Origin: a virus
Lineage: Duplodnaviria; Caudoviricetes
Direction: 5' to 3' (one strand)
IMG/VR virus record: IMGVR_UViG_3300034104_002314
Coordinates: 1 to 62,103 of that record
DNA length: 62,103 nucleotides
The position numbers were made by a program, and so were the translations under genes. Below the pieces are notes generated by a model, which searched no databases, had not been told where the DNA came from, and was given only the letters and a program-made list of their open reading frames with translations. Below are positions 5,938-59,825 of the stretch, piece after piece (the first letter of the stretch is position 1; each line of letters starts with the position of its first letter).

Positions 5938-6519
5938 ATGAAGGAATTTAAAAAACCAGATGTTAAGGCTCCAAGGTATAGACCACAAGCTTATAACATT
6001 TTAAACAAAGAGTTCTTTGACTTATTTAGAAAGAAGTATCCAAGGTACAGTAATCTGGATAATAATAGTTTAAAAAAGATTGCCAAAACTTTTAACAAGT
6101 TAATCTATCAAACTATTATTGACACTAGAGATGGTGTACAATTACCTGAGTCATTAGGTTGGATATTTATTGGATCTTGTGATCAGAGTAAAAAAAATAA
6201 CATAGACTTTTCTAAGTCTACAAAATATGGAGTAACTGTTACTAACAGAAACTGGGAAACAGACGGTAAGTTAGCTAAGATATTTTATACAAGCTTGGCT
6301 CCTAAACACAAAATAAGAAACAGAGAATTTTGGAGTTTTAGAGCATGCAGAGAATTTAAAAGATCTGTAGCAAAAACTTATCCTGAAAACTGGAATATGT
6401 ATGTAAGGTTGGATCCTCTTTCTAAATTAGAAACTATATATAAAAAGGCTAATTATAAGGAGTACATGAAAAATGAAACTGCTAAGGCTCTTAAAACATA
6501 TAATGAATTTGACATATGA
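5938..6519 (+). CDS. IHF/HU-like DNA-binding protein of crAss-like phages
   Basis: 193 aa, basic; helical N-part followed by GVQLPESLGWIFIG (HU/IHF beta-arm pattern); syntenic position. Confidence 0.6.
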   Translation: MKEFKKPDVKAPRYRPQAYNILNKEFFDLFRKKYPRYSNLDNNSLKKIAKTFNKLIYQTIIDTRDGVQLPESLGWIFIGSCDQSKKNNIDFSKSTKYGVTVTNRNWETDGKLAKIFYTSLAPKHKIRNREFWSFRACREFKRSVAKTYPENWNMYVRLDPLSKLETIYKKANYKEYMKNETAKALKTYNEFDI

Positions 6520-7181
6520 CAACTATAGGTGAAGCAATATCAAGAGTAAGAAATGCAGTAAAAGCTGTAAAAGAAGATCCATTCTTAACTGATAGGCAAA
6601 TATATTTTGCTTTACAAAAGTATTCTCAAGCACTAATTAAGAGAGAAGACAATCAGTTTAGACTTATGAAAATAAGTTCTATCTTCAAAGTGCTTCCCTA
6701 TATTGAACTTATTGATGTAGATAAAGTAGAAGCTGGTTGTGTTGGTGTATACTCTGAGTGTTACATAAAAAGATCCAAGGATAAATTACCAACAATACTA
6801 AATGGTGTGTTTGGTCCTATTATCCGTACTACATCTTCTATAGATGGATCTATAGAAATGTTTAGAACAGATCCTGGTACTTGGGTTTCTATGACTAAGA
6901 CAACTACATTTAAATATAACAAGAGACCATACTTCTGGTATCTTAATGGATATGTATATTGTCCTAATATAGACTGGGATGCTATCAAGATGGAGGCTAT
7001 ATTTGAAGGTGAAGTAGATATATGTGATCCTAAAGTAGAATGTATGGTAAAACAAGATCAAGCACTTTCATTACCAGAATATTTATTTGCTGAAGTAGAA
7101 CAACTTGTTATTAAAGAATTAACCATGCTGATGTCAGTACCTGTAGACTCTACAGATGATGGGCAAAATATACTTAGATAA
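6516..7181 (+). CDS. Tail ring/adaptor protein (crAss gene-73-like)
   Basis: 221 aa; EDPFLTDRQIYF motif; ATGA overlap with the upstream gene; precedes the tail tubular gene. Confidence 0.6.
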   Translation: MTTIGEAISRVRNAVKAVKEDPFLTDRQIYFALQKYSQALIKREDNQFRLMKISSIFKVLPYIELIDVDKVEAGCVGVYSECYIKRSKDKLPTILNGVFGPIIRTTSSIDGSIEMFRTDPGTWVSMTKTTTFKYNKRPYFWYLNGYVYCPNIDWDAIKMEAIFEGEVDICDPKVECMVKQDQALSLPEYLFAEVEQLVIKELTMLMSVPVDSTDDGQNILR

Positions 7182-8224
7182 TGGATTTTAATTATACACT
7201 CCGTTACAGGACATTTGATCAACTACTGGAAGATGTTACAGTAGACATGCATACATTTGCTCTAGAAAATATGATAGAGCCTCAGACTTTGATTAAGTTA
7301 GTTAAAAAACTTAACTATGATTTAGGTCTAAGGATAAATCAAACTAGAGAAGTTGTACTAGAAGTTTGTCATGGTAGAGTAAAACTTCCAGATGACTTTT
7401 ATGTATTTAACTTTGCTTTGCTTTGCGGAGAGTTTGATCTTGCAACAAGCTATGGTGGACCAGCAGGAGGAACTAACATACAGGAAGTTCCATATAAAGA
7501 GTTTCCATCCACAGTAAATCAATGTGCTCCAGAGAGTGTAAACTGTAGAACATGTAATGCTAATCCATGTAATCATACAGCAGCTTGTGATCTTAATCAT
7601 CCTATAGTGGATCCAATACCAACTGCATATGATCCTAACAATCCTTATGGTGATACATGTATACCACCAAGAGTATTTATGAACTGTAAAGGAGAAAAAT
7701 ATGAGTTAGTTCAAATAATGAGCAGAACAGAAACAAGAACATACAGAAGACTGATTCCATTAAAAATGAAAACTAGTCAAAGTATAGAATGTGACTGTCC
7801 AAACCTATATATGAACAGTACATTTGAAGGATGGATAAAAGATGGTTTTCTTTTTACAAACTTTCAAACCGGGAATGTATACCTTAATTACCAAGGAGCA
7901 CTAGAAGATGAGGCTGGTAACTTACTTGTTCCAGATCATGATCTTCTTAATGAATACTATGAGTATGCATTAAAGCAAAGAATACTTGAGAACTTATTCA
8001 TGAATGGAGAAGATGTTTCTCAAAGAATGAGTATGATTGAGCAAAGACTAAGAGCTGCAAGAAATCAAGCACTTAGTTTAGTTAACACACCAAACTTTAA
8101 AGAAATGGAAAAGCTATGGTGGACAAATAGAAGAGCCCAATACAATAAGTACTATGATATGTTTAAAAGTTATAGTCCTAATGCAGCTTTTTATAGATAT
8201 TACGGAAACACTAGAGTTATATAA
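7181..8224 (+). CDS. Tail tubular protein (P22 gp4-like) with Cys-rich insertion
   Basis: 347 aa; GRVKLPDDF...FTNFQTGNVYLNY...DEAGNLLVPD pattern of crAss Ttub; TAATG coupling. Confidence 0.65.
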   Translation: MDFNYTLRYRTFDQLLEDVTVDMHTFALENMIEPQTLIKLVKKLNYDLGLRINQTREVVLEVCHGRVKLPDDFYVFNFALLCGEFDLATSYGGPAGGTNIQEVPYKEFPSTVNQCAPESVNCRTCNANPCNHTAACDLNHPIVDPIPTAYDPNNPYGDTCIPPRVFMNCKGEKYELVQIMSRTETRTYRRLIPLKMKTSQSIECDCPNLYMNSTFEGWIKDGFLFTNFQTGNVYLNYQGALEDEAGNLLVPDHDLLNEYYEYALKQRILENLFMNGEDVSQRMSMIEQRLRAARNQALSLVNTPNFKEMEKLWWTNRRAQYNKYYDMFKSYSPNAAFYRYYGNTRVI

Positions 8225-8226
8225 CT

Positions 8227-11200
8227 ATGGCAAAGATTCAAGATACGTCACAAACTAAACCTAGTAGTTTTGTAAAAGGTTTAAATAAAGATTCAGATCC
8301 TACATATATTCAAGAGGGTATGTGGACACATGCCCGAAATGTTGTAAATAATACTGTAGAAGGTGAATTAGGTTCATTATCTAATCAACCATCAAATTTT
8401 AAATGTCCTTCTGCTTTTCCTCCAGGGATTACAATGCCACAGTTTGCATCATTATTTAAAAAAATTACATCAAGATATGTTATAGGTGCAATACATTTAT
8501 TTTCTGATAAGTGGATTATATTTACTGCTGGACATAACTCTACCGGTCAACCTGCAATGTCAGAAATAGGATTACTTGAAGAAGAAAGGTGCATATATAG
8601 ACCTATTGTACAAGATGCTTGTTTAGGTTTTGATAAAAGATATTTAATATCTGGTGCTGCTAGATTAGTACAAGATTGTTCCTGGCAAGTATATTGGGCT
8701 GATGGATTGAATCCTGACAGATACTTGAATATTGGTGATCCCCAAACTTGGCCAACAGAAGATTTTATATGGGCATTAAATTCTTATGTTCCTGCACCAA
8801 ACTCTCCTACTACATCAATTACTCAAGTAATATATGATGCTAATGTAAATTATTATGTTAATGCAAATGGAGAACAAATACTTTGGCCGGGTGTACAGTG
8901 GGTAGAAAATTGTACAGAACCTGTTGATTCAGATGGTGATGGTGAGCCAGATCCATCATGTGTTTTCTGTACACAGTTTAATTCTTTAGATTGTATTCAT
9001 ACAAGACTAGCCAGAATAATAAAAACTCCATGTCTTAAGGTTAGACTTGGTGATTCAGGTGGTACCCTTAGAAATGGAACCTATTTTGCTACACTAGCAT
9101 ACAGTATTAATGGTGTAAAAGTATCAGATTATTTTTCACCAAGTAATAGCCAACCTATATGGTATGATAATGATCTTCAAGGATCATTGGTTATTGAAGT
9201 AGAAGCAGATACTGAAAACTTTGATGAGTTTATACTAGTGATTGTACAAAATATAAATCAAGGTACTGTAGCCAGACAAATTGGTATATACTCAACTAAA
9301 ACCAAAAGGATAGAGTTAGATCAAATAAAAGAAGATCTTATTTCAGTACCAGTTCAGTTCCTACCAGTAGTAACTCCAATAGTAGAAAAGTCAAATCAAA
9401 TTGGAGAAGTAAATGATTATCTACTAAGAGTAGGTACCACATCTAAATTTGATTTTAACTACCAACCTTTGGCAAATCTTATTCAAACTAGATGGGCCTC
9501 TGTTAAATATCCTGCAGATTATTATGTTAAGGGAGGAAACAAAGGTAGTTACATGAGAGATGAAGTATATGCTTTTTTTATACGCTGGGTATATGATACT
9601 GGAGACAAATCTGCTTCATATCATATTCCAGGAAGAGTTGAAAGAGATTATAAAATAAATGGTATTAACTATCCAGAAACTACGGATTGGTTAGATAGAA
9701 ATACTCTTGCCCAAAGTGATAGATTATTTGAAGTATATAATACAGCTGGTGCATTCTCAACACATCCTTTAATAGGAACTACAACTGATGATGGGGGAAC
9801 TGTTATTGCAGTAGGAGATATGGGTTATTGGGAGTCTGAGGAAAAGTATCCAGATAACAAACCTGATGTATGGAATGCAAGTGCAAATTGTTGGACTGCT
9901 GTTCCTATTGATCCTGTGTCAGGTTTACCTATATCAGATCCATCTTATGATTTATGTGGTCAACACATAAGGCATCATAAGTTTCCAGATAACTATTTAA
10001 ATGCTGATACTCTTCATTTTGAAAGTAGTGCTAATTACACCACCTTTGGTAGTAATCTCAATATAAGAATAATGGGAGTCTTTTTTGAAAACATAATTTA
10101 TCCAAAAGATAATTATGGAGAAGACATACCTGGTATTGTAGGTTATGAAATATTAAGAGGATCTAGAGAAGGTAACAAGAGTATTGTTGCTAAAGGTATG
10201 ATTAATAACTTTAGAAGTTATGAAATAAGAGGTAATGCTAAAAGAAACAAAACAGGTCTTTATGCTAACTATCCTTTTAATACAATCAAACCTTCTACTA
10301 ATTTAGGTGGTACGTGTATTTTTGGACCTTCATTATTACCTTGTCACAATAGAGGCTTTAATGATCCTTATATAAAACTTCAAGATCCAAATGATCCTGA
10401 CAAAGTTTTTGATCAAGTAGTTCCCAAAGAGATAGTATCTTTTCACTCTCCTGATACAATGTTCAGAACACCATTCTTATCATTTACAGAACTAAAAATT
10501 TATGGTCATTTACTTGGTGTATCAGATCAACAATTTAAAGAACCTGATAGACATCCAAAATGGAAATTAATATCAGATGAAGCTAAAACTATAATGTATG
10601 TCTTAGGTATTGCTGAAGCTGCTTATTCATTTCAAGGAAAGTATATTGTCAATGAACCACCAGCACAACCTGCAACTACTAATGCTCTTGCTTCAGTTGG
10701 AGCACCTGCAGCTCTTGCTGCTTATCAGGGTGCTGTTGAAGTTTATGAACAAGCAATGATAACATACTTTGCAACTGGTTTAGCACTTGTTGATAGTGTA
10801 GCAATGGCTTTTTCAGGTATCAGGCCTTTTTATGAATTTTTTATTTTTTCTGCTTATGACGCAGCTGTTGGAACTGCAGCAGCAGCAGGTATAGTTACAC
10901 CAAGCCCAACTGAATATACAAGAGAACTTCCTAAATGGGCTTATCTTGATCCCGTATCAAGAGCACTTGGTGGACTTAATCAGTTTTTATTTTACTTTAG
11001 TGAGGGTGTAGATATTGCTTTAAGAGGAATATATGCTGCAGTAAAATGGGATCAGTATGCATTACAAATGATTGCACATGGTTTCTATGGAGGCTTTGGT
11101 GCAAATAAAATTACAGATACTGTTAGATTTAGAATTGAAGATAGTACATATTTAAGAGATAACATTCTTGAATTACCAAGATATCAACTAAACAACCAAA

Positions 11201-13845
11201 CATACAATTATAGTATAAATAATCTTAAAAGATCTGACACAGCAGTATTAAGAACAAACTGTGGAGTTCAACAAAATAATCCAGATAAAGGTCCTGCATA
11301 TATAACAGCAAATAACCAAAGTATATACTTAGATCAAAGTCTTCAAACTCTTGGAACTTTGAATTCAGGTTTTGCAGAATTCCCTACTACAGCAGCATTA
11401 AACTCTATTCCAAGTTATACTGAATTTGACAGACCATTTTCAATGAGAATTGCAAGTCATTATGCTGCGGTAAAAGTAAGACTGGGTAATCAGTATGGTC
11501 AGTTACAATCTACATATCAAAGTATAAAACAAATAGTAATTACACCTTGTGAACAAAAGATTGGAATAGCAGGTAATATCTTTAATCAATATACAACAAG
11601 TGGTATATGTTATGATGAACAAGTAAAACAACGTAAACTTACAACAACACCATTATTATTTGGTGGAGACATTTTTATAAATAGATATACAGAAAAGAAT
11701 TCTATGTTCTTTTTTTATGATTGGTTATATGGACAACCTGATGGATTTGAATATAACTATGCCATAAGAAACATGATTCCTTTTGCAAGATTTTATGCAA
11801 ACTCACAAAGATTTGATTCATCTGATTTATTAGGCTTTTCTGGATCTGGGGATACAGCAGTTCCTCAAGCAACAGGAACAAGTCCCACTGACTTTTATAA
11901 CTTAGATAATGAAAATTACAGTCTAGGTACGGATGATCCAAAACCTTATCCAGGAATATTCAGACCAAAGAACTCTTATTTTTATCTAGCTAATTCTTCC
12001 GTAAGAGATTTCTTTGTAGAATCTGAAGTACTTGTAGACTTTAGGATTGACGGAGACTATGAATGGGAAAAGAGTTATAACCCATATAAGTATACAGACT
12101 TAGTATCCATGTTTAATATGGATCCTCAGATAATCACTAGAGGTAATGAATATAGATATGATTACTCTTTAAGTATCTCCAAACTATTTACTAATTACTT
12201 TTCATATGGTACTTTACAAAGTAGGTACTATGATCCTAAAGTAGCTTCACTTTGTTACACATATAATCCAAATAGAATTATATATTCCTTACAACAAGCT
12301 GATACAAGTTACAGAGGAGACAACTGGTCAATATTCTTAGCTAATAATTATAAAGACTTTATTAGTGAGGTCAGTGGTATTAAACAAGTAAATAAGAGTG
12401 GTTTATTTATTACATTTAAAAATGATAGCCCATTAATGTTCCAAGGAGTTGATCAATTACAAACTGATCTTGGTACTAAACTTACTATAGGTGACGGAGG
12501 TTTATTTAGCCAACCAGGCCAATCTGTAACTAATGCAGATAAAACTTATGAGTATGGTTCATCACAGAATAGACTTTCTGTAATATCATCTCCTGCAGGT
12601 ATTTATTATATATCCCAAAACCAAGGTAAAATATTTAGTTATGGTGATGGTATAAAAGAAATATCACAGAATGGTTTAAAATGGTGGTTTAATAATTTCC
12701 TACCATATAAGCTAACTATTGACTTCCCAGATTATCCATGGAATGACAATCCTGTAGCAGGTATTGGTTGTCAAACATTATATGATAATGAAAACTCTGT
12801 ACTATACTTTACCAAAAGAGATTATAAATTAAAAGATATTTTCAAAGGAAGGGTGGAATATGTGCCTCTTAATACTGAACCAAAAAAACCTTTTAGTTTT
12901 GGAACATTGTACAGAAGGCAAGGTGACTTTTTCCTATTAGATGGTCAATCTAAGTATCTACTTGGTGATCCTTTCTTGTTTGATGATGCTTCTTGGACAG
13001 TAAGCTTTGATCCTAAAAATGAATTCTTTATTTCATTTCATGATTGGCATCCTGATTTAACTATACCTACTAAAGTAAATTATCTTACAACCAAAACTGT
13101 AAAAGAAACATTCAATGGTACTCAACAGTTAATGGCCAACATATGGAAACATGATACTAATCCGGGTGGATCATGTGGTACTTATTGTAACTTCTATGGT
13201 GTGGACTATCCATTTGAAATAGAGATACCGGTTACAACAGGTCAAACAGTAACTACAATTAAATCTGTAGAGTATATACTAGAGTGTTATAAAAGATCTG
13301 AGTATAACTGTTTTGACCAGTATCATGTACTTGATTTTAATTTTGACAGAGCTTTAATATATAATTCAGAACAAGTTTCTGGATACTTAAACCTAAACTT
13401 ATTTCCAAAAAACAATGTAGCTTTAAGTTTACAATATCCAAGACCTAATCCATCTTTATCTGTAGATCCAACATATTTACCAGTTCCAGGATATGATATA
13501 TTATTTTCTAAAGAAGAAAATAAATATAGACTTAACCAATTCTGGGATATAACAAAAGATAGAGCTGAGTTTCCAATTGGTTCAGGTTATCCTCCACAAG
13601 GACAACTTATTCCTGGAACAACTCAACTTTTAGGCAACTATGATGAAAGACAAATATGGGAAACAGGACCTAGTGGATATAGAAGAATTCTTAATCAAGC
13701 TAACTTAGATTATGTAAAACCACTTTTACAAAGAAAGAAGTTCAGACATTATTTAAATTTCCTAAGTTTGTCAAGAATGGTATCAGGTAATGTGAATATG
13801 ATATTTAAAATATCTAATATTAAAAACCAAGTATCTTTAAGGTAA
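8227..13845 (+). CDS. Tail stabilisation / muzzle protein (P22 gp10-like)
   Basis: 1872 aa; FVKGLNKDSDP, VYWADGLNPDRYLNI, YMRDEVYAFFIRW and IRHHKFPD are hallmark motifs of crAss Tstab. Confidence 0.75.
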   Translation: MAKIQDTSQTKPSSFVKGLNKDSDPTYIQEGMWTHARNVVNNTVEGELGSLSNQPSNFKCPSAFPPGITMPQFASLFKKITSRYVIGAIHLFSDKWIIFTAGHNSTGQPAMSEIGLLEEERCIYRPIVQDACLGFDKRYLISGAARLVQDCSWQVYWADGLNPDRYLNIGDPQTWPTEDFIWALNSYVPAPNSPTTSITQVIYDANVNYYVNANGEQILWPGVQWVENCTEPVDSDGDGEPDPSCVFCTQFNSLDCIHTRLARIIKTPCLKVRLGDSGGTLRNGTYFATLAYSINGVKVSDYFSPSNSQPIWYDNDLQGSLVIEVEADTENFDEFILVIVQNINQGTVARQIGIYSTKTKRIELDQIKEDLISVPVQFLPVVTPIVEKSNQIGEVNDYLLRVGTTSKFDFNYQPLANLIQTRWASVKYPADYYVKGGNKGSYMRDEVYAFFIRWVYDTGDKSASYHIPGRVERDYKINGINYPETTDWLDRNTLAQSDRLFEVYNTAGAFSTHPLIGTTTDDGGTVIAVGDMGYWESEEKYPDNKPDVWNASANCWTAVPIDPVSGLPISDPSYDLCGQHIRHHKFPDNYLNADTLHFESSANYTTFGSNLNIRIMGVFFENIIYPKDNYGEDIPGIVGYEILRGSREGNKSIVAKGMINNFRSYEIRGNAKRNKTGLYANYPFNTIKPSTNLGGTCIFGPSLLPCHNRGFNDPYIKLQDPNDPDKVFDQVVPKEIVSFHSPDTMFRTPFLSFTELKIYGHLLGVSDQQFKEPDRHPKWKLISDEAKTIMYVLGIAEAAYSFQGKYIVNEPPAQPATTNALASVGAPAALAAYQGAVEVYEQAMITYFATGLALVDSVAMAFSGIRPFYEFFIFSAYDAAVGTAAAAGIVTPSPTEYTRELPKWAYLDPVSRALGGLNQFLFYFSEGVDIALRGIYAAVKWDQYALQMIAHGFYGGFGANKITDTVRFRIEDSTYLRDNILELPRYQLNNQTYNYSINNLKRSDTAVLRTNCGVQQNNPDKGPAYITANNQSIYLDQSLQTLGTLNSGFAEFPTTAALNSIPSYTEFDRPFSMRIASHYAAVKVRLGNQYGQLQSTYQSIKQIVITPCEQKIGIAGNIFNQYTTSGICYDEQVKQRKLTTTPLLFGGDIFINRYTEKNSMFFFYDWLYGQPDGFEYNYAIRNMIPFARFYANSQRFDSSDLLGFSGSGDTAVPQATGTSPTDFYNLDNENYSLGTDDPKPYPGIFRPKNSYFYLANSSVRDFFVESEVLVDFRIDGDYEWEKSYNPYKYTDLVSMFNMDPQIITRGNEYRYDYSLSISKLFTNYFSYGTLQSRYYDPKVASLCYTYNPNRIIYSLQQADTSYRGDNWSIFLANNYKDFISEVSGIKQVNKSGLFITFKNDSPLMFQGVDQLQTDLGTKLTIGDGGLFSQPGQSVTNADKTYEYGSSQNRLSVISSPAGIYYISQNQGKIFSYGDGIKEISQNGLKWWFNNFLPYKLTIDFPDYPWNDNPVAGIGCQTLYDNENSVLYFTKRDYKLKDIFKGRVEYVPLNTEPKKPFSFGTLYRRQGDFFLLDGQSKYLLGDPFLFDDASWTVSFDPKNEFFISFHDWHPDLTIPTKVNYLTTKTVKETFNGTQQLMANIWKHDTNPGGSCGTYCNFYGVDYPFEIEIPVTTGQTVTTIKSVEYILECYKRSEYNCFDQYHVLDFNFDRALIYNSEQVSGYLNLNLFPKNNVALSLQYPRPNPSLSVDPTYLPVPGYDILFSKEENKYRLNQFWDITKDRAEFPIGSGYPPQGQLIPGTTQLLGNYDERQIWETGPSGYRRILNQANLDYVKPLLQRKKFRHYLNFLSLSRMVSGNVNMIFKISNIKNQVSLR

Positions 13846-14396
13846 TGAAATATAAAGTAGCTAAATCTAAAATCCCAAATGCAGATAAAGGTTTATTTGC
13901 AAAGAACCCAATTAAGCAAGGTGAAAGAATAGGTCTTGCACATAAACAAGGTCAACCTGTAGGTACACTGGGTAATATGCATAATCACTCTGATGAGCCA
14001 AATATGCATAGTGTTAAAGTTGGTGATAAAAGATATGTGTATGCCAAAAGGGATATTAAACCTGGGGAAGAACTGACTACTAATTATAGAATGCAATCTG
14101 AGTTAGAACAACCTGAAGACTTTATGCGTAAGGGGGGTAGAACAAGAGGATTAGTGCAAATGCCTAAGCCAAGTAAGAAAGGTTTAGCATCTAAGAAGTA
14201 TTCTAGAAGTCTTGAAGCAACAAACAGACTGTTTACAGAAAACAGATTGTTTAAAAAACCTAAGTCTAAAAAGAATAAAGTATTTGATCCTAATGCAAGA
14301 TACTACCAAGGTGGAGGTTATGTAGACCTGGAATTAGATGCTGCTGAAATACAAAAATATATTGACGGTGGTTATGTAGTAGAAGCACTTGATTAA
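13845..14396 (+). CDS. Minimal SET-domain lysine methyltransferase with Lys-rich linker and C-terminal tag
   Basis: SKIPNADKGLFAK (motif I), NHSDEPN and AKRDIKPGEELTTNY (conserved Tyr); TAATG coupling to Tstab. Confidence 0.85.
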   Translation: MKYKVAKSKIPNADKGLFAKNPIKQGERIGLAHKQGQPVGTLGNMHNHSDEPNMHSVKVGDKRYVYAKRDIKPGEELTTNYRMQSELEQPEDFMRKGGRTRGLVQMPKPSKKGLASKKYSRSLEATNRLFTENRLFKKPKSKKNKVFDPNARYYQGGGYVDLELDAAEIQKYIDGGYVVEALD

Positions 14397-14442: not shown

Positions 14443-17400
14443 ATGAAGAAAAAAGTAAGAATTTACAAAGCTCCAGATGGTAAAGGAAAATTTGTAAACA
14501 AAACTGCAAAGTTTTTACATAAAGCACAAGAAGGTGGTCAACAAGATCAACAAGCACAGATAGCTGATTATGTTTATAAAACATTAGCTAACACTGATGA
14601 GCTTGATATGGAGATGATGAAAGATACTCTCATAGGTGAGTTAGTATCTGCTAAAATTCCTATGGATCAAGCTGAGCAAATGGTAGAAAACATTGCTGCT
14701 AATTTTGAAAGTCAAGAACCAGTTCAAGAACAGGAAGAAGAAATGGATGTCTATGATGAAGGTCTGGCAGAATTACAGCGTCAACAAGAAGAAGCTGAGG
14801 AAGAGAGATTAGCAGGCTTATCTGAAGATTATGGTTATTATGATGATACAGCTGCAGATGGTGAGGATGATGAAGATGATGATGACGATGATATACCTGA
14901 AGAAGCTTACATGCAACAAGGAGGTGATATAATTCCTGAAGATAATGCTGTAAGCTTTACTGGATACTATCCTTTTCAATATAACAGAGACAAACAAACT
15001 TCTTATCAACAAGGTGGTATTACAAAAAGAAAGTACATAGGTCAAGTAATGAAGTTACTTAAGAAACAAGCTGGAGGTGAAGAAGAGAAACCTTCTGCTG
15101 GTTTTGATCCTACTGATACCATGGATAACAAAAAGAAAAATAAAAAGGACAACTTTGTTGCAGCTCTTGCCAATTCTGCTCAAGAAGCTAAAATGAAAGA
15201 GCAAGCTGAAGCTATGTGGGAACAACAGCAACAGCAAATGATGCAGCAACAAACTCCTATGCAACAACAACAGTTTGCTCAGAACGGTGCTGAAATAGGT
15301 GGTGGAGATATTATATATGGAGCAACAGAAGAGGAAAAAGAAGAATGGAGAAGGAATAATGGGCCAAACTATTATCCAGAAATGTCAATAAGCCAAGCAA
15401 GAAGTATGAGTCCAAGAGGTTTTAGTAGAAACCAAATGAGATCATTTGCAGGTATGGTGCCACAGGGTGGATTCTTTCCAATGGGTATGAATATTATGAC
15501 ATATCCTCAAATGGTAATGCCGGAACAAAAACCTATACATGTTCAAGGCACCCTTCCAGGTATGAAGTTAGATGTAAGAAAATCACATTGGCTTACAGGA
15601 AGACCTTCTCAATATTCTATTGAGTTTGGTGGTGACTTTGCTATACCTGGATTTAACATGATGCCGGGTAAAGGTTATGGTAGTAAATCTACTCAAAGAA
15701 AAACTATAGAAGGTGTGTCTAGATTAGTAAATAAAAAAGCTGATCCTGGTAAAAACAATACTACAGTTTTAAATAATAATCCTGAGTATGATAAAGATGG
15801 TAACGGTGTTCCTGATAATGTTCAGAGTAATATAATACCATCAACTCCTGGTATACCTTCTGCATATGATAGAAACGCAAATAACATGTTGGATGTAACT
15901 GAAGTTAAAACAAATCTTCCAGCTGTAAATAAAAATCCTAATAAAGATGCCGTAGGTAAAGGAGCTAAAGTACCTACTAAAACTCAAACTAAAAAAACAG
16001 TTACAGCTACCAAATCAAAACAGGCTGGTCAAAATAAACCTGCAGCATCTTCAGCTAAAGTAACTAATAAAGGAAAAGCAACTGTTACTAGTTCTGATCT
16101 AATCAACAAACAAAAAAAATCAGGTTGGTCAAATAGTGTAACTGGACCAGGAGCAGGATCTTCAACATATGATTTTGTACCAAACTGGGTGAAAAGTGTT
16201 GTTGATAATAATCAGGCTAGAGATGCTGAAAATGAAAAACTTTTAGACTATTTTTTAAACAGTAAATCACCATTACTAAAACAACAAAGTGGAGGTTTTG
16301 TAGATAGTTCAAATCCAGATTTATATAAGTTTGTATATGGTGGAGATGATGTTATCACACAACAAGATATGAACTATTCTGATTCTAGAAATACAGGTAG
16401 CCCTTTCTTTGCTCATGGTGGTTTAGTTCATTATCAAAAAAAGGGTGAAGTAACAGAATATGATAAGGATGGTAATGGTGTACCTGATCTTGTTGAAAGA
16501 ACACCTGGTAAAAATCCTGAAGAGAAAAAAGAAGAAAAGAAAAAAGATGAGCCTAAAAAACCCGAGTTTCAAGCTATCACATCTAAAGAAGATTATGATA
16601 AGAGACTGGCTGAGGAAAGAAAAAAATGGCAAGAAGATTATACAAAACAAAATCAATCTTCAGATGATGTTGGAGGATATGACCCGTATGGAGGATATGT
16701 TCGTAGAAGTTATAGACCAAATGCTTTTGGTAGATATTTCCCAGCCAACACAGTAAGAAGATTAGGTACATGGTCTCAACAACAAGGGATGCCTTATGAT
16801 CCTAGAACAGGTGCAGGATACTTTGGAGGCTTTGGACCCAACACTAATCTTACAAAAATTGATGTAAGAAAATCTGGATGGTTATCTGGTAGACCTAAGA
16901 AGTACACTATGTACTTTAATAATTACAATGTTGATCCCAAACTAGCTGCATTTTTAGAAAGTACAAGTGGTGCTAAACCAGGTACTCAACCCTCTTCAAC
17001 ACCTAGCTATCCAAATACCTCTCCAACATCTAGTAATTCAGACACCCCTTCAAATAAAGAAACTCCTGAAAGAGAGTTTATCTTGCGGTTTAATCAAAAA
17101 AATCCTGAAACCAAAAATGAAGAAGCTAATTATGGACCTTCTGCTGAAGAAACTGCTGCAAGAGATGCTGCTACTGAAGCTAACAAAGGTGTTATAAGAA
17201 ATTTCTCTGAGGTTGAGGGTGTACAAGATGATCCATTTGGTATTGGTATGGGTGGTCCAAGTGAAGAGCCTTCAGACTTTGAAGAGTCAACACAAACATA
17301 TGATTCTCCTGAAGCTGCTAATGAATATGTTCAAGGTGAATGGGGAGATATAATGACAGATGTTTCAGAAGTTTTAGGTCCTGAGTCTCAACAAGAATTT

Positions 17401-19056
17401 GATCAATTCTTAGCAACCAATCCTAGTAAAGGGGCAATAGATGCTAAGATTGAAGACTTTATGCGTCAGAGAAATCAGGCAATAGGTAAAGATGCAGAAT
17501 CAGTTGAAAGAAATACTTTAACAGCAGATACTGAAGAAGAGATTATGAATCAAGAAGCAATGCGTAGAAATCCCATGTTCATGGGAAATTCCGGTGCTCC
17601 TGCTGCAAATCCAAACTTTGGTGCAACTCCTGAAATTGCAACTGGTAATGACTATCAACTGTCTGACAGAGAACAAGCACAGATAGACTACATGATGCAG
17701 AATAGAAGATCTGCTCCTGTAGATTTTCAACCTTATGTTTCTAGAAAGCCATCTGAAAATCTTGCTAATCTAGCCTATACTGATAGTTTACCTGCATTAC
17801 CAGCAACTCCTTTAGAAGCAGGTAATTATGAAGATATGCTTTTAAGTGGCTTTCCGCAATATACAGATGCCTTTGAAGGTGCTGCTTCTAATGATGAGCA
17901 ATATCTTCCAGGAACAATGGATGACATGAGTGAAGGTTCTGTAAGAAATAGAGAGATTGCTGCTAAACAAAAATATAATCAACAACAAGCTGCTATAAGA
18001 CAACAACAATTATTACAACAACAAGCTTCATCTGGTGCTGGAAACTCTAAAACTAATTCCGCTACAAGTAATGATGCACCAAAAGAAAAAGCATTTAATT
18101 CTAATAGACAAGCTAAACAGTCTGGTAACTGGACTGATGACTGGGATATTAAAGGTGTGATAAATAAAAACAAAAATCAATTGGAAACTTTAAAAGACTC
18201 ACCAATTGGTACTAAAACATCATATGCAATTGAAAAAAAATGGGAAAACTTATCTAATGCACAAAGAAAAAAATATAAAAACTTTAATAACTTTTTAAAA
18301 ACAGAAGGTTATGATAAATTTTATAATGCAGTAAATTCAAAACAATTCGGTGGTAATGCAAACTTAAATAGATTTGTCTATGGTGATGAAGTTACTAAAA
18401 CTTCAACAGGAACAGACAGCCCGGTATCAAATACAAACAATCCAATAAATCCTTTTCTCCGTTATGATTCTGCTGGCAAACTTGTCATACCAGGTTTTGG
18501 TGAACCTGAAGAGAACAAAAACCAAGACTTAAAGACTACATTAAACTACTATGAAGGATACGGTCAAGGTGATGAGTTTAGTGCTGCTCCTGCTGGTAGT
18601 GCATCTACTATGGATGAATCAGGAAATGAAATTGTTATGTCCCCAGATGAAGCCAGAAAAAAAATTGCTGAAAATGAATTTGCGGTAGACTTCAAAAACA
18701 AAGATACTTATGAAGTAGATGCACAAGGTATGCTATTATCAGGTAATGCTGGTGCTAGAGGTATACTTGACTTTTTTGAAAGAAGGGATGAAAAAAGAAG
18801 AAATAAAAACTTTAATGATAGATTTACTGCAGACAATCTTTATGCTTCTGATCCTAGTAGAGATCGTGGTGACTATGATACTAATACTGGTTTATACAGA
18901 CCTAATGAACAAGGTCAGATATGGAATAGCAGATCTAAACAATTAGGTGGTTTTATGCAAGAAGGTGGATATGCAGAGGGTGATGTAGTTGACATGACTC
19001 CAGAAGAACTGGAAGAATTTATTGCCAATGGTGGTGAAGTAGAAATTATAAGTTAA
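14443..19056 (+). CDS. Low-complexity internal cargo/ejection protein with xxGG motifs
   Basis: 1537 aa; Q/E/G/N-rich; no Cys seen; many [MYF]QxGG-like motifs and internal duplications. Confidence 0.7.
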   Translation: MKKKVRIYKAPDGKGKFVNKTAKFLHKAQEGGQQDQQAQIADYVYKTLANTDELDMEMMKDTLIGELVSAKIPMDQAEQMVENIAANFESQEPVQEQEEEMDVYDEGLAELQRQQEEAEEERLAGLSEDYGYYDDTAADGEDDEDDDDDDIPEEAYMQQGGDIIPEDNAVSFTGYYPFQYNRDKQTSYQQGGITKRKYIGQVMKLLKKQAGGEEEKPSAGFDPTDTMDNKKKNKKDNFVAALANSAQEAKMKEQAEAMWEQQQQQMMQQQTPMQQQQFAQNGAEIGGGDIIYGATEEEKEEWRRNNGPNYYPEMSISQARSMSPRGFSRNQMRSFAGMVPQGGFFPMGMNIMTYPQMVMPEQKPIHVQGTLPGMKLDVRKSHWLTGRPSQYSIEFGGDFAIPGFNMMPGKGYGSKSTQRKTIEGVSRLVNKKADPGKNNTTVLNNNPEYDKDGNGVPDNVQSNIIPSTPGIPSAYDRNANNMLDVTEVKTNLPAVNKNPNKDAVGKGAKVPTKTQTKKTVTATKSKQAGQNKPAASSAKVTNKGKATVTSSDLINKQKKSGWSNSVTGPGAGSSTYDFVPNWVKSVVDNNQARDAENEKLLDYFLNSKSPLLKQQSGGFVDSSNPDLYKFVYGGDDVITQQDMNYSDSRNTGSPFFAHGGLVHYQKKGEVTEYDKDGNGVPDLVERTPGKNPEEKKEEKKKDEPKKPEFQAITSKEDYDKRLAEERKKWQEDYTKQNQSSDDVGGYDPYGGYVRRSYRPNAFGRYFPANTVRRLGTWSQQQGMPYDPRTGAGYFGGFGPNTNLTKIDVRKSGWLSGRPKKYTMYFNNYNVDPKLAAFLESTSGAKPGTQPSSTPSYPNTSPTSSNSDTPSNKETPEREFILRFNQKNPETKNEEANYGPSAEETAARDAATEANKGVIRNFSEVEGVQDDPFGIGMGGPSEEPSDFEESTQTYDSPEAANEYVQGEWGDIMTDVSEVLGPESQQEFDQFLATNPSKGAIDAKIEDFMRQRNQAIGKDAESVERNTLTADTEEEIMNQEAMRRNPMFMGNSGAPAANPNFGATPEIATGNDYQLSDREQAQIDYMMQNRRSAPVDFQPYVSRKPSENLANLAYTDSLPALPATPLEAGNYEDMLLSGFPQYTDAFEGAASNDEQYLPGTMDDMSEGSVRNREIAAKQKYNQQQAAIRQQQLLQQQASSGAGNSKTNSATSNDAPKEKAFNSNRQAKQSGNWTDDWDIKGVINKNKNQLETLKDSPIGTKTSYAIEKKWENLSNAQRKKYKNFNNFLKTEGYDKFYNAVNSKQFGGNANLNRFVYGDEVTKTSTGTDSPVSNTNNPINPFLRYDSAGKLVIPGFGEPEENKNQDLKTTLNYYEGYGQGDEFSAAPAGSASTMDESGNEIVMSPDEARKKIAENEFAVDFKNKDTYEVDAQGMLLSGNAGARGILDFFERRDEKRRNKNFNDRFTADNLYASDPSRDRGDYDTNTGLYRPNEQGQIWNSRSKQLGGFMQEGGYAEGDVVDMTPEELEEFIANGGEVEIIS

Positions 19057-19061
19057 ATATA

Positions 19062-21290
19062 ATGAAAGTTAGAATTAAAAAAGTACCACAAGCCAGAACA
19101 GGTTATCAAGTACGTGGAGCTTTAGCCAATGATGTGCCAGCAATGGGTGGTGCAGACTATGATGGCTATGCATCAAAAGAAACTAAATTTAATAGAACAC
19201 TCAAAGCTGTACCAAGAGAAGAAGCTAATCTTGAAGCAGAGGGTAATGAAACAGTAATGATGAATACAGGTAACATACCTGCATTTTATACTATTAAAGG
19301 ACCAAGACATGCTCAAGGAGGTGTTCCATTAAATTTACCAGATGATAGCTTTATCTACAGTGATTTTAGAGAAATGAAAATAAAAGATCCTGATCTGTTG
19401 GCTAAGTTTGGTAAATCTGTAAAAGGAAAAACTGCATATACTCCTGCTCAGTTATCTAAACAGTATGATATAAATAAGTACAGACAGATATTGCAGAATC
19501 CAGATTCAGATGCTATAGACAGGAAGACTGCAGAGATAATGATCCGTAATTATAACATGAAGTTAGGAGCATTAGCTTTAGCACAAGAAGCTAAGAAAGG
19601 ATTTCCTCAAGGTATCCCTGCTGTAGCTAAACCATTTATGGAAGCTAATAAACTTTCTGAGGCAGATTTTATACCACAGGAAGAAGAAGCAACAGAACCT
19701 GGAATGGAAGCAGAAGGTGAAGAGATGATGGCAGAAGAAGGACAAGCTCCTGAAACAATGCCTGATGGATCTCCAGTAGCTATGCCACAAGGAGAACCTA
19801 TGCCAGAACAAGGCATGATGCAATATGGTGGATATCCAATGACCATGTATGGTATGCAAATGGGTGGTTATGCAATGCCATTCTACAATGACCCTAATCA
19901 AATGGCTTACGGTGGTGTACCAAGATTTGATAATGGTGGTAAAATTACTGGTGAAGCTTTAAAGAAGAAAGCAGCGGGTAAAAAAGCAACAACTGTTAAA
20001 GAAGTAGGAAAAGATTATGAAGACATTGGTGGTGGTAAATATGCTAAAGGTACATACTCAAAATCTGCAGGAGAAAAAAAACAATATAATAAATATACTG
20101 GAAAAGTTCAAAAACAAACACCACAACAAGTGGAAGCTTATTTAGATGGTGTTTGTAATAGAATGAAAAATGGTGATTTGCAAAATTACACTGCAGAAGA
20201 ACTAGCTGGTGAATTTTTTGATAAGTCTTATATAGAGAGAATGAGAGCCTGTGAAACAAAAACAGGTGAAGAAAAAGAAGATATTGATGTAGTTCAACTT
20301 GAAGAATCAACACCTGTTAATGAACAAGAATGTGAGTGTACATATCCAGATGGTAGTACTGAACGTATGCCTAAGAATGCTGATGGTACATGCCCTCCTT
20401 GTAAAAAAGAAGTTGAAGAGGAAGGAGAATACTATGAAGAACCAATGGTTGAACAAGATGGTTATGCTCCTTGGTGGTTACAAGATACTGTAAATACTAT
20501 GGGTGCATTTGGAGATTTAGCAAGTATTAAAAAATATATGCCGTGGGCTGCTAATGTTGATCTTGAAGAACCAAGACCTACATTCCTAGATCCTACAAGA
20601 GAGTTAGCTGCTCAATCTGAACAAGCTAATATTGCCGCTCAAGCTTCAGGAGCTTTTGCAGGCAATGCTCAACAGATGGGTGCTAGACTAGCAAATATAC
20701 AAGGGCAGGGTGCAGCAAGCGCAGCAAATACTTTATCTAACATTAATAACCAGAATGTTGGTATAGCAAATCAATTTGAAGGACAACAAGTTGGAATTAG
20801 AAATCAAGAACAACTTATGAACCAGCAAATTGCTAATGACTTATATGATAAGAATGTTATTGCTAACCAACAGTTTGACAATGCTAAAAGACAAGCTGCA
20901 CAAAATCTTAGACAACAGTATAATACTGCTGTTACTAATAGATGGAAAACAGATGCAATGAATCAATTGTATCCTGACTATGCTGTTGATCCTTCTACCG
21001 GTGGTCAAATGTACTTTAATCCTACACCAAAAACACCAAATCCAACTAGACCTGAACAGAGTGATATTGAGTATGTAAGAAGTCTAGAAGAAGCTAATAT
21101 AGACAAAGATATAATTGGTAGAATGGTATCAGCACGTATGAGAGGCTCGGGTGGTGGTGGAGGAAATGACGGACCGGATCCTAATATTGCAGCACAGATG
21201 TATGGTAATAGACAAAGAGGTGGATATGTAGGATATCTTCAGAATGGTGGTTATGTCTATGCAGATACAATCTTTCCTTTTATTATGTAA
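19062..21290 (+). CDS. Internal cargo protein (crAss cargo-protein-like)
   Basis: 742 aa; ANLEAEGNE...KGPRHAQGGV...FIYSD motif recalled from crAss-like cargo proteins; Q/N-rich coiled coil; xxGG motifs. Confidence 0.7.
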   Translation: MKVRIKKVPQARTGYQVRGALANDVPAMGGADYDGYASKETKFNRTLKAVPREEANLEAEGNETVMMNTGNIPAFYTIKGPRHAQGGVPLNLPDDSFIYSDFREMKIKDPDLLAKFGKSVKGKTAYTPAQLSKQYDINKYRQILQNPDSDAIDRKTAEIMIRNYNMKLGALALAQEAKKGFPQGIPAVAKPFMEANKLSEADFIPQEEEATEPGMEAEGEEMMAEEGQAPETMPDGSPVAMPQGEPMPEQGMMQYGGYPMTMYGMQMGGYAMPFYNDPNQMAYGGVPRFDNGGKITGEALKKKAAGKKATTVKEVGKDYEDIGGGKYAKGTYSKSAGEKKQYNKYTGKVQKQTPQQVEAYLDGVCNRMKNGDLQNYTAEELAGEFFDKSYIERMRACETKTGEEKEDIDVVQLEESTPVNEQECECTYPDGSTERMPKNADGTCPPCKKEVEEEGEYYEEPMVEQDGYAPWWLQDTVNTMGAFGDLASIKKYMPWAANVDLEEPRPTFLDPTRELAAQSEQANIAAQASGAFAGNAQQMGARLANIQGQGAASAANTLSNINNQNVGIANQFEGQQVGIRNQEQLMNQQIANDLYDKNVIANQQFDNAKRQAAQNLRQQYNTAVTNRWKTDAMNQLYPDYAVDPSTGGQMYFNPTPKTPNPTRPEQSDIEYVRSLEEANIDKDIIGRMVSARMRGSGGGGGNDGPDPNIAAQMYGNRQRGGYVGYLQNGGYVYADTIFPFIM

Positions 21291-31200: not shown

Positions 31201-31796
31201 TTGGTGTTGGAAAAGGTAATGCTGATCTGGCTGCACAACTTGCAATGAAGATCAGACTTGCTAAATCTAAAGATTCTATTAAAGCAGCACAAGCTAGCTT
31301 AAATAAAGCTGTTAACAAACTTAGTGCGGCAGAAGTTGTTGAATTATCTAATCAGTTGCAGGAAAAACTTGATTCATTATCTGAAGGAATTTTACAATTA
31401 AATAAAGAAAATCTTAAAGAAAATGACAAACTTATTGTAAAAAACCCTATATTTATAAAAGGGGCTAAGTGGGCTATTTTTGGAAACACTCTAGTCATAA
31501 CTGATGTAAGTGACACAGGAGTTACTGTAAGAAAAGCTAGAGGTAAAAAGACAGAAACCCTTACATTTGCACAAGTAAATGCATTAACAACTTTAAAAGA
31601 TAGTCTTGAAGACATGAAACCTACAACAGAAAAACCTTTAACTAAAAAAGAACAAGATATAGTTGCTAAGTCTAAAGCAAACATTGATGACTTTGTAAAA
31701 GACTTTAATAGATTAGATGCTATTGAAGCTGAGGCAGACTCAATGAGTATTGAAGACTTAGAAGAAAGATTATTTAACCAAAATATTTGTGAGTAA
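25260..31796 (+). CDS. Giant virion protein with C-proximal PD-(D/E)xK nuclease domain
   Basis: 2178 aa; Gly/Ala-rich hydrophobic helices in the N-terminal part; GIAGEIDIIIVD...KIVDVKTG...Q.SY RecB-like motif at about 30714-30900. Confidence 0.8.
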   Translation: MAEQDIPFNPLDPLGPEYGRGDLPTLDTQGISPFEGDRIEQPKINFPKDESPKYFPILPSTGGTIPQKQVIKKTIGQPPGPAGPPRGTSSRDILMSLSARSKANMSSNQSKGTYGGTYNYNAGASGNAYYNRYHAYGQEKFDRIGFSPLQDNEAVFNGQTSKWDDFSRMMTHSFMPLFGNAFVSGPKSMVKMLQGDFTSVDAEGAKLYEEAAAIGQSTKGGLFGFFNNTAMSSAYTAGIISEVILEELAAAAFTGITGGVGGGALVATTAKNASRIPGIFKTLRGFDKAVDGTKAIRATMDTLNDINNTRSYWNKFKSAVNTPLGKFINPLDNTVDAIESIVRNEDNLTGLARTLYGVNKTAGGLYRDVRGLNMALSEARLEGGFVQNEVYDKLYSDFYQDNQRRPTNEEQRLLYKQAKEAGVEALGWNAAIIHASNKIMFPNILGPRGGINSFIKAKTRDILDLKAGKIIFENAGKKAAKEAVKGMKGSFRYVENSLMNSIKGIAKDPVKAIPKVLGYAKANFSEGIQENLQEVISETTKNYYVDSFKDPSLANYNYARSLFNTSLRGQFSAKGFETFASGFVMGMFGAPLNHVVPLLSYGKARLFNNEKYQEYVSAKQKVGTQMVNHLNELGADPSEFFNSKITNLAVQNKAGHIIKNGNTKEVNDAKSESFINQLTTAFETNTLDFFKDHLSSFKQYTPEEFEEALGLEKGTGAEYQARIDDILKHADNMQTTYKNLNQKYPDQINLDDYKKGSDDYNRAAIYKSALAEGKRNAVFFKHTYDDTMSRMYDISNTLLAEKPLKNMSASEMQAIFEPSRMKSEMEMMRYEIETLRQSGKAEDSAKADKIEGKIGAMENFLKALNYRSKHYAADPSKIKSDFIDTLTDEQKEQINEEELDALLDRELEAQNMVRRSDESDLKVDNLFERAYKDYLKAVAGVTDDTYFDEAADSAFEKILDYYNLEKESRDMAKYVNLLNNPGDFADLVERHFEWKKQLWENRKDYYRDQVQASMNAFADNALLNQLADENFYVSLDDFARWQETGQVPDEFFNDQKNIVVREGTSEYDRFSAIFDAAYLARQAGVLDENLNYDEELKKELEELDAQKNEELNALPKTEVMTELDPVEASKGSKVTAKDIEDQVQNTEYIDITFKTKEGKDEITLYRTEDGDFINEVTGDVVDLVAMKLDILENKRYRNDLQPDPTQAQEIENVYKNKKADIINKYAEKKAVQAEEEETSVEKPEAKKAEPVTYSATDDFSSLDKTLQDQLQEAFVKNVPEAEEFDDEQFFNELRAFTRTSGIARRIIDEYNKKSKLTAATEVTGVPEKLVIKLSGKEVDLTDQPESVIKKNRQLLMMQINNMQNKDKRTPDENLMLAEAKADKAKIDRYLKSRTTQEISEKMQETINRLQLVFDAQSKLEKINEAYYVDNQLMKRVTRAIEELGVTEYSYSDETKVLASVNQTLVKGKSVEDFIADLRTKKPSGFSEYTYNELAKELKAFLNETSVSNEASIKAKKADIEKEREEKVNEFLRNIKNNRGEKRFDDPNLQDELEIKQHSRNVAKALADGQTITFEFLKANLGAKFTTNSSNVVTVTTNRGTGNIELSEEGTVRYIAIDKNNNITYDFEDRGKEINLKQARAISKAEADYQKELKNINAKYDAELAALEQPVEAKINIPKDQELLQLNLDALREDLKVEQGEFGNPERAQQIKDQIAKLEKQIVKPSGKSAEDIRNEVMAIVKEKTYEASRIAGNYVDNQIKNIFDPKIGKAVFDENSITRIAFNNLFGPEGIVTDLKAKFDRNEIAVYTKDIRVFDKDAGIAGEIDIIIVDRDGNVKIVDVKTGEASKWNNFQDKKKFGYQKQKDYILQQTSYANLLFNMTGLNASIGIFPIEITKDDETGKVLTAQSPKVSSGLLPGAYEIPLDKSLYQAEIDSIIPRKGVAVDSKESAEAANLESIPRQDGDDAPSPAVKAQETLEEKPIGVGKGNADLAAQLAMKIRLAKSKDSIKAAQASLNKAVNKLSAAEVVELSNQLQEKLDSLSEGILQLNKENLKENDKLIVKNPIFIKGAKWAIFGNTLVITDVSDTGVTVRKARGKKTETLTFAQVNALTTLKDSLEDMKPTTEKPLTKKEQDIVAKSKANIDDFVKDFNRLDAIEAEADSMSIEDLEERLFNQNICE

Positions 31797-59431: not shown

Positions 59432-59825
59432 CTTTAAATTTAATATCAATTTCAAATTTATCTGTAGGATAGCCAATGGACTCTAACATCCTTGACATAT
59501 CTCTAATAAAGAATTCCATAAATAGCTCAACCGAAGCTTTGGAACCTCTGTGTTTTGTAATCAGACTTAGTGTTTTAGGACTACTAAGTGGTACTTCACT
59601 TACAAATGTATTTTGGAGCCTCATTGCTATTTTATTACAATTTGCTAACCAATTATCCATAGCATGTCCACCATACTTATAGAGAACTAATAGTTCTCCT
59701 ATATACTTCTCAAAATCAACATTCTTTAGAGACTCAAATGCTATAAGATGATTATCTGCATCTTCAGATTGTAACATCATAAGTAAATTCCTTGTTTCTT
59801 CTTTACTAAAAATCATTTTTGCCAT
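59406..59825 (-). CDS. Hypothetical helical protein
   Basis: 139 aa; shares an M.xS.D.DNH..A.E motif with the 444-aa ORF. Confidence 0.7.
   Translation of the reverse strand: MAKMIFSKEETRNLLMMLQSEDADNHLIAFESLKNVDFEKYIGELLVLYKYGGHAMDNWLANCNKIAMRLQNTFVSEVPLSSPKTLSLITKHRGSKASVELFMEFFIRDMSRMLESIGYPTDKFEIDIKFKDDGQTTES

Follow-up and report, generated by a model that had tools for sequence, protein, structure and literature searches.

A SET-headed modular protein encoded directly downstream of the tail muzzle gene of an uncultured crAss-like phage

The window analyzed here is the complete IMG/VR record IMGVR_UViG_3300034104_002314 of a tailed phage (Caudoviricetes), a linear sequence of 62,103 bp with a G+C content of 33.5% and a CheckV completeness of about 52%. 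It is a fragment, and portal and capsid genes are not part of it. Directly at the stop codon of the tail muzzle gene it carries an open reading frame (ORF) for a protein of 183 amino acids (aa), for which an initial annotation, made from the letters alone, had proposed a SET domain followed by a linker and a C-terminal tag. All strings named there (KGLFA, NHSDEPN, GEELTTNY, MRKGG, and YQGGG) are present in the translation. The gene and its three modules, called SET, LNK, and TAG in the following, were located as follows:

13845..14396 (stop included), + strand: SET-LNK-TAG gene, 183 aa (ORF; Pfam SET; AlphaFold2; Foldseek)
13845..14123, + strand: SET module, aa 1-93 (AlphaFold2, Foldseek, invariant residues)
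13887..13901, + strand: KGLFA, a G-x-G-like motif, aa 15-19 (alignment of 143 modules)
13983..14003, + strand: NHSDEPN, aa 47-53 (aligned to INHCCDPN of yeast Set1, chain 6bx3_E)
14064..14087, + strand: GEELTTNY, aa 74-81 (EELTTNY aligned to EELTYDY of yeast Set1)
14124..14138, + strand: MRKGG, border between SET and LNK, aa 94-98 (G97 and G98 in 144 of 151 aligned linkers)
14139..14315, + strand: LNK, basic linker, aa 99-157 (conserved; predicted helix at aa 123-132, of low model confidence)
14316..14393, + strand: TAG, acidic C-terminal module, aa 158-183 (profile E 9.7e-14; predicted strand-helix-strand)

The Pfam SET model (PF00856) matched the protein with 48.3 bits (cut-off 22.4; E 1.5e-12) and with 40.1 bits in a six-frame search, the alignment covering the C-terminal half of the model only (aa 37-81 against model positions 56-104 of 105). 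The motif alignments with yeast Set1 were made by HMMER. In the AlphaFold2 model, built on a 20-sequence alignment, the confidence measure pLDDT (predicted local distance difference test) is 86-93 for aa 1-85 and below 60 from aa 88. Foldseek matched this model to 175 PDB chains at E<=1e-3; among the matches listed, the top ones are SET and PR domains (MLL1, vSET, PRDM, SET7/9), led by the SET domain of MLL1 (6u9m) and chlorovirus vSET (3kma). Furthermore, 25 predicted viral structures were matched at E<=1e-3, the best of them belonging to an 'uncultured virus' (a SET protein of 971 aa with 34% identity) and to uncultured Caudovirales (likewise SET proteins). The compact SET core of the initial annotation is therefore borne out by profile search and structure prediction, and the 183-aa protein almost certainly represents a genuine minimal SET fold. 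Its SET part contains no cysteine and thus lacks the zinc-cluster pre- and post-SET regions. Directly behind the core follows a conserved tail, QxELEQPEDF.

Conservation was assessed in an alignment of 143 SET modules, the one of the window and 142 from 139 family proteins. Residues S8, I10, G16, I29, G30, H33, N47, H48, E76, Y81, and L87 are invariant in 143/143, and F93 is found in 136 of the 137 modules having a residue there. The N-terminal G-x-G motif of SET domains has a cofactor role; its first position, residue 14, is Gly in 122, Asn in 11, and Asp in 10 of the 143 modules. Between the window and the related locus L001, the ratio of nonsynonymous to synonymous substitution rates (dN/dS) is 0.059 in the SET part and 0.141 in LNK-TAG; it is 0.068 against L002 (over 157 codons) and 0.085 against L009. 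The intact, conserved catalytic residues and the low dN/dS point to a SET domain that is under purifying selection and is very probably an active methyltransferase.

A close viral counterpart is vSET (A612L; PDB 3kma and 1n3j), which the chlorovirus PBCV-1 'encodes and packages' (PMC7019647). Like the window module, vSET is a minimal viral SET domain without zinc-cluster flanks, and it was the second-best structural match in the PDB among those listed (template modelling score 0.61 normalized to the target, E 9.9e-6). However, vSET is a stand-alone protein of 119 aa from a eukaryotic virus and acts on K27 of histone H3, whereas the host of the window phage is a bacterium without histones. The SET core of the window (about 93 aa) is shorter than vSET and is fused to LNK and TAG, and the sequence similarity found by phmmer is marginal (E 0.2).

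The gene is embedded in a block of tail and giant genes on the same strand:

6516..7181, + strand: gene of tail ring protein R2 (Pfam CrAss_Ring_2, E 3e-22)
7181..8224, + strand: gene of tail ring protein R1 (Pfam CrAss_Ring_1, E 4.1e-12)
8227..13845, + strand: gene of the muzzle protein, 1872 aa (Pfam crAss_MUZ, E 1.9e-27; phrog_37948 'virion structural protein', E 4.4e-45)
14443..19056, + strand: gene of a 1537-aa protein, the next gene in cargo position (TAG-like C-terminus at nt 18991-19053)
19062..21290, + strand: gene of a 742-aa protein, rich in Gly-Gly (N-terminal motif MK(K)VRI.K in common with the 1537-aa protein)
31796..42445, + strand: gene of a 3549-aa protein, homologue of the crAss-like virion RNA polymerase (DFDVD at aa 2484)

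Downstream of the SET gene, ORFs of 1537, 742, 164 (HNH-AP2), 1135, 2178, 3549, and 1943 aa follow in this order. Residues 2100-2899 of the 3549-aa protein match 68 crAss-like phage records in tblastn, several of them annotated as putative RNA polymerase. With R2, R1, the muzzle, the giant ORFs, and the RNA-polymerase homologue, the gene order matches the block of muzzle, cargo, and RNA-polymerase genes of PhiCrAss001 (gp44 to gp50), so that the cargo-type cluster assumed in the initial annotation was recovered. The best cultured relatives of the muzzle are only 24-30% identical and include Leptolyngbya, Cellulophaga, Flavobacterium, and gut crAss-like phages. Going by these distant relatives, Bacteroidota of freshwater or the sea may be guessed to be the hosts. 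PDB sequence searches with the 2178-aa, 3549-aa, and 1537-aa neighbours gave no match, and nothing useful was found in PHROGs or Pfam for the 1537-aa, 742-aa, 1135-aa, and 2178-aa proteins, the first of these having no match at all in either. The 1537-aa and 742-aa proteins begin with similar motifs (MKKKVRIYKAPDGKG.. and MKVRIKKVPQARTG.., window positions 14443-14540 and 19062-19150), which are kept in the orthologues of L002, L003, L004, L009, and L011 and may be a second signal common to proteins in cargo position.

Behind the SET module, the isoelectric point (pI) changes from 11.2 in LNK (computed over aa 94-157; 19 Lys and Arg in 64 aa) to 4.05 in TAG. The Lys-rich linker of the initial annotation proved to be a discrete and very conserved module, in which P107, T126, N127, P149, and Y154 are near-invariant and which is flanked on both sides by near-invariant Gly-Gly pairs; the YQGGG string lies at aa 154-158. 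Gly-Gly directly precedes LNK in 149 of 153 cases and follows internal TAGs within 22 aa downstream in 109 of 134, against a background of 18% of 22-aa windows. MRKGG and YQGGG are thus the Gly-Gly module borders of a modular family. Gly-Gly dipeptides are also more frequent than expected in the SET protein (4 observed, 1.6 expected), the 1537-aa protein (19 and 11.2), and the 742-aa protein (15 and 7.2), by a factor of about two; the muzzle and the giant proteins of the window show no such enrichment.

A tag shared with the next cargo protein had likewise been proposed. In the window itself, the TAG profile reaches the extreme C-terminus of the 1537-aa ORF with E 0.066 only, which is the second best of 414 window frames. 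The claim gains support from the orthologues: the motif ..MT[DP]EE[IL]E.F[IL]ANGG.[VL]E.. is C-terminal in 4/4 orthologues of the 1537-aa protein examined, and the TAG-like end reaches E<=1e-3 in the orthologue of L020, L021, L022, and L038. The C-terminal tag common to both proteins is therefore taken to be real, in a divergent form.

TAG was also considered as a double-glycine leader for C39 peptidases. This was dropped, as the Gly-Gly inside TAG is often NG, QG, or KG; compared with the double-glycine leader consensus, the spacing of the hydrophobic residues in TAG is off by one. An adenain- or Ulp-like peptidase that could cleave at the Gly-Gly borders was not found in the window, which represents about 52% of a genome. 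The sole peptidase-like gene seen there lies at about 58247-59476 (- strand) and encodes a 408-aa protein with a DUF2201_N putative metallopeptidase domain, a VWA-like DUF2201 domain, and a weak PhageMetallopep match; it is a putative candidate for the processing of proteins with Gly-Gly-delimited modules. An ESM Atlas look-up of aa 99-183 returned nothing beyond unnamed viral clusters, at the chance level of 0.83-0.84.

Relatives of the protein were searched at two scales. A word-indexed search gave 30 relatives among 142 candidates; the protein P0001 has the same length of 183 aa, the identical architecture, and 89% identity to the window protein. The profile search of 1.84 billion cluster representatives gave 1639 proteins at E<=1e-3; of these, 687 also pass E<=1e-10 and 258 pass E<=1e-30, the latter being clusters at 50% identity; most of the 150 family matches listed are 400-2479 aa long. 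The module profiles were applied to the 173 proteins in hand, a sample biased by the query, of which SET, LNK, and TAG were all part. In this sample, 139 proteins contain SET, which in 79 of them begins at residue 12 or earlier, and 212 copies of TAG are distributed over 139 proteins, the last copy lying no more than 6 aa from the C-terminus in 76. The following architectures were obtained:

SET-LNK-TAG(n): 85 proteins
NDX-LNK-TAG(n): 29 proteins
SET-LNK: 21 proteins
NDX-SET-LNK-TAG(n): 9 proteins
rarer module orders: 29 proteins

NDX is a beta domain of about 65 aa with a pLDDT of about 89 in the predicted structure; it has no Pfam match, and its fold matched 0 PDB chains at E<=1e-3. Judged by module composition, the window protein is not a free-standing oddity and belongs to a large modular family as its smallest form.

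In relatives of 600-2400 aa, the tag is present repeatedly and further modules are found, namely amidase, lysozyme, SLT, YkuD, and ART-PolyVal. For the domain survey, 35 members were selected so as to be diverse, and a few others of the 173 were included. At a Pfam threshold of E<=1e-4, the 35 members contain SET (21), ART-PolyVal (3), Amidase_2 (2), and one each of SLT, CBM_14, Phage_lysozyme2, YkuD, and Phage_lysozyme. P0092 (2377 aa) combines SET, LNK, YkuD (aa 289-443), and ART-PolyVal (aa 1352-1502, E 9e-13) in one chain. In L011, an Amidase_2 domain (E 1.6e-16) lies behind the N-terminal SET, and in L004 a lysozyme-like stretch does so, with 21.3 bits just below the cut-off of 22.3; P0114 has a Phage_lysozyme match of 23.3 bits. 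Hydrolases and ART-PolyVal in the chain of the relatives are the make-up expected of proteins delivered at infection. Two SET modules per chain were seen in P0031, P0095, P0097, and P0099.

The position of the gene is conserved as well. In 12/12 crAss-like loci (L001-L011 and L015, with L004-L008 nearly identical to one another), the modular gene begins at the muzzle stop in the identical TAATG, in which the muzzle stop TAA and the SET-gene ATG have one base in common. Where the contig is long enough, the upstream order in these loci is a 193-aa gene, R2, R1, and the muzzle, and homologues of the 1537-aa and 742-aa proteins lie downstream. Translational coupling to the muzzle gene, as claimed in the initial annotation, is plausible on account of this overlap. 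It is not peculiar to the SET gene, as overlaps of 1 or 4 bases occur at four junctions of the tightly packed operon (SET/muzzle and three others), and is rather a general property of the operon. A terminator and promoter scan found no terminator-like sites around the SET gene and promoter-like sites at chance level only.

With P0092, 27 further loci were recovered. A muzzle homologue (25-56% identical) lies directly upstream of the modular gene in 20 of them and was not found at the other 7; the post-muzzle gene starts with NDX in 19 of the 20 cases and with SET in one. The fixed position behind the muzzle and the changing modules mark the first post-muzzle gene as a conserved slot for a variable modular protein. 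As the survey of the locus proposed in the initial annotation showed, the slot holds SET- or NDX-headed modular proteins. By comparison of these loci, SET is one N-terminal head of the post-muzzle protein, found in the window's own lineage, and in one lineage of crAss-like phages from the environment, the LNK-TAG chassis appears as the mark of the protein encoded first after the muzzle.

Some loci show particular arrangements. L001 and L009 are the opposite ends of one 118-kb IMG/VR contig with two differing versions of the post-muzzle gene, one a SET-LNK-TAG frame running to the contig end and the other encoding a SET protein of 932 aa in which additional sequence separates SET from LNK; this contig could have arisen as a concatemer or by chimeric joining of two related phages. 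In the more distant lineage of L023-L030, the muzzle homologue appears split into ORFs of about 1550-1630 aa and 288 aa, and an NDX-headed modular gene directly follows the 288-aa piece. A genome-collection scan gave a single match, L019, a 4.4-kb contig binned with a Phycisphaerales metagenome-assembled genome, in which the SET-LNK stretch is 92% identical. Most likely, a phage contig was drawn into this bin, and with its short length it cannot serve as evidence of a host.

The N-terminal place of NDX in 19 of the 20 post-muzzle proteins of the wider locus set could indicate that the SET fold serves there as a non-catalytic head, i.e., a plug, spacer, or docking piece that is interchangeable with NDX, and the Asp at the first Gly of the G-x-G motif in the window would be in line with this. 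However, the invariance of G16, N47, H48, E76, and Y81 in 143 modules is not expected of a mere spacer, and NDX and SET occur together in 15 proteins, so that they are not simple alternatives. A non-catalytic head is therefore very unlikely.

The combination of modules resembles the polyvalent proteins of Iyer et al. (2017; PMC5512222), a class in which several enzymes share one chain; their genes adjoin virion genes, and packaging and injection have been predicted for them. As in this class, unrelated enzyme modules are joined in one chain in the relatives of the window protein, and the genes lie beside virion genes; an encoding among late or virion genes was also found at the window locus. 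Two or more effector domains are present in P0092 and L011, but not in the window protein. The zincin-like processing peptidase of the class was not detected in the 35 family members (Pfam E<=1e-4), its sole trace being a DUF6782 match in P0067 of 20.3 bits, below the cut-off of 27 bits. The term 'SET domain' has 0 occurrences in the main text of PMC5512222, and the LNK-TAG chassis and the Gly-Gly borders are not described in the available portion of that paper.

Concerning the position, the products of the post-muzzle genes gp45, gp46, gp47, gp49, and gp50 of PhiCrAss001 were found in virions by mass spectrometry (PMC10172136), and part of gp45 resides in the tail barrel, ready to be ejected (Bayfield et al., 2023; PMC10172136). 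The cargo proteins C1 (gp45) and C2 (gp46) have the same genomic place as the window gene, between the muzzle and the RNA-polymerase-related giants, but no enzymatic domain is reported for them and they have no detectable sequence similarity to the window proteins. Of the four genes that follow the muzzle homologue in Cellulophaga phage phi17:2, the first is annotated as tail protein and the other three as virion structural or structural. By analogy with these phages, the window protein is probably virion-associated.

Based on this, the protein can be read as an S-adenosylmethionine (SAM)-dependent lysine methyltransferase on an LNK-TAG chassis, which is carried in the virion and delivered into the host, a chain of assumptions for which the chances stand about even. 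Packaging and injection are suggested by the gene position and by the fusions in the relatives. The gene position and the overlap with the muzzle gene are observed, and the protein would accordingly be made late, together with the muzzle. It would then be loaded into the cargo space of the tail or capsid by means of LNK, TAG, or both. When LNK-TAG (aa 95-183) was modelled in complex with ring R1, ring R2, and muzzle aa 1-220, the score was 0.00 against a mark of 0.32, which counts neither for nor against an interaction. At infection, by analogy with the PhiCrAss001 cargo proteins, the protein may be extruded into the cell ahead of or with the DNA, and would refold in the host cytoplasm, where SAM is present. 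There it may methylate lysines of host proteins and so aid the takeover or blunt defence.

An enzyme that is carried by the particle, injected with the DNA, and covalently modifies host proteins is known in T4 Alt, an ADP-ribosyltransferase acting on host RNA polymerase (PMC5512222). Some family members carry an ART module in one chain with SET. The window protein itself differs from T4 Alt in fold, in chemistry (lysine methylation instead of ADP-ribosylation), in phage group, and in packaging route. The packaging into the T4 head makes use of a capsid-targeting sequence. SET enzymes methylating prokaryotic chromatin proteins have been described as well, namely cpnSET acting on Hc1 and Go1-SET acting on MC1-alpha (PMC3980110). 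They act on basic DNA-binding proteins, a plausible class of substrates, but are cellular, not viral, and not modular. By analogy with vSET, cpnSET, Go1-SET, and T4 Alt, the putative target most likely belongs to the nucleoid-associated proteins or to the transcription machinery.

The methylated lysines could also belong to the phage itself. In this case, SET would act during assembly on the phage's own Lys-rich virion proteins (LNK, the 1537-aa and 742-aa proteins, and the giants) in the producing cell, e.g., for protease protection or for a tuned DNA binding, and the enzyme itself may or may not be packaged. The late-operon position with the overlap to the muzzle gene is consistent with this, as is the strongly conserved, basic, Lys-rich LNK that adjoins the enzyme, the Lys content of 9-10% of the neighbouring giant proteins, and the presence of SAM in the producing cell; in the periplasm and the virion, SAM is not available. 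On the other hand, the LNK-TAG chassis occurs without SET in 34 of the 173 family proteins, so that LNK does not depend on SET. Furthermore, the other enzymes on the chassis (ART-PolyVal, amidase, lysozyme, SLT) all point to host targets, and PhiCrAss001 and other crAss-like phages have cargo proteins and no SET. Self-modification during assembly is thus regarded as unlikely.

Several findings weigh against a SET enzyme that is packaged and injected. The SET gene and its 12-kb surroundings were unmatched in nucleotide and protein searches of 50,697 GenBank phage records, and none of the cultured phages in this collection carries the module. The 1537-aa and 742-aa neighbours are without detectable similarity to PhiCrAss001 gp45 or gp46, with phmmer scores near zero, and SET, LNK, and TAG were not found in the corresponding regions of PhiCrAss001 or phi17:2, so that the cargo assignment follows from position alone. 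The LNK-TAG part of the AlphaFold2 model is of low confidence (pLDDT 41-68). The window protein has a single catalytic domain, the polyvalent architecture being found in its relatives only, and with D14-K15-G16 it has the minority state Asp at the first Gly of G-x-G. In addition, the peptidoglycan hydrolase modules of the family act in the SAM-free periplasm, and the modules must therefore reach different compartments.

Finally, the SET module of L012-L014 is C-terminal in a 446-aa protein whose neighbours, small genes, have no recognizable virion function. By this gene context, the SET module also travels outside the crAss-type slot. In L012 (ORF 1870-3207, 446 aa), it is 71% identical over aa 5-98, and the N-terminal half of the protein matches phrog_36119 of unknown function. 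Such a setting would suit a late-expressed enzyme which is not packaged and modifies host proteins in the cytoplasm, LNK and TAG serving localization or oligomerization. The intact SET motifs agree with this explanation equally, and the packaging assumed for the virion-carried enzyme is itself deduced from position and fusions. However, the position directly after the muzzle is strictly conserved, the peptidoglycan hydrolases in the chain of the relatives fit only a protein that encounters the cell wall on entry or from the outer side, and the next large protein has a TAG-like end as well. An unpackaged enzyme is quite improbable by these points, and the virion-carried methyltransferase remains the preferred reading.

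In its furthest form, this reading would be a plug-and-play delivery, with LNK and TAG as loading or docking signals, in their logic comparable to the encapsulin cargo-loading peptides of an HK97-fold shell, and Gly-Gly borders as processing or hinge sites at which one chain could be cut or unfolded into separate tagged warheads. SET would then be the first known phage-injected lysine methyltransferase, acting within minutes of infection, and a bacterial counterpart of chlorovirus vSET that methylates a nucleoid, transcription, or defence protein. This version is doubtful. To our knowledge, protein lysine methylation is not established as a weapon of bacteriophages. If SET is delivered with the DNA, it would add a new chemistry to the virion-borne enzymes that modify the host, such as T4 Alt and the virion RNA polymerases of N4 and the crAss phages, and would offer a direct handle on bacterial proteins controlled by lysine methylation. 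A uniform chassis with interchangeable enzymes would moreover provide a natural list of effectors that Crassvirales-like phages may inject, and may give a portable signal to load foreign proteins into phage particles. By means of the two short conserved modules, the selection and order of cargo in crAss-like phages become testable.

In the literature searched, no paper describing a SET domain in Crassvirales or crAss-like phages was found, the sole Crassvirales match being 'C2-set domains'. The search for a SET lysine methyltransferase in phage virions gave only unrelated papers and isolated one-word mentions in phage genome papers. A bare SET annotation on proteins of uncultured phages is already present in databases and is not new. 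Three points appear to be new, namely the use of SET to head the polyvalent protein encoded after the muzzle in crAss-like phages, the LNK-TAG chassis with its Gly-Gly borders, and the size of the family.

Further genes of the window carry recognizable domains. At 21350-21844 (+ strand), the 742-aa and 1135-aa genes are separated by a gene for an HNH endonuclease of 164 aa that also has an AP2 domain (HNH_3 E 3.5e-7, AP2 E 3.1e-9); it is probably a homing endonuclease inserted into the cargo block. The 1943-aa giant behind the RNA-polymerase homologue (42456-48287, + strand) contains a LysM peptidoglycan-binding domain (aa 1628-1670, E 1.7e-9), which suggests that part of the cargo block meets the cell wall. 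In the replication-side block, two GIY-YIG endonuclease genes were identified at 57306-58076 and 60951-61403 (both - strand; GIY-YIG with NUMOD1 and SegE-like), and near them lie a PD-(D/E)XK nuclease (53559-54572) and, at the window end, a Toprim protein.

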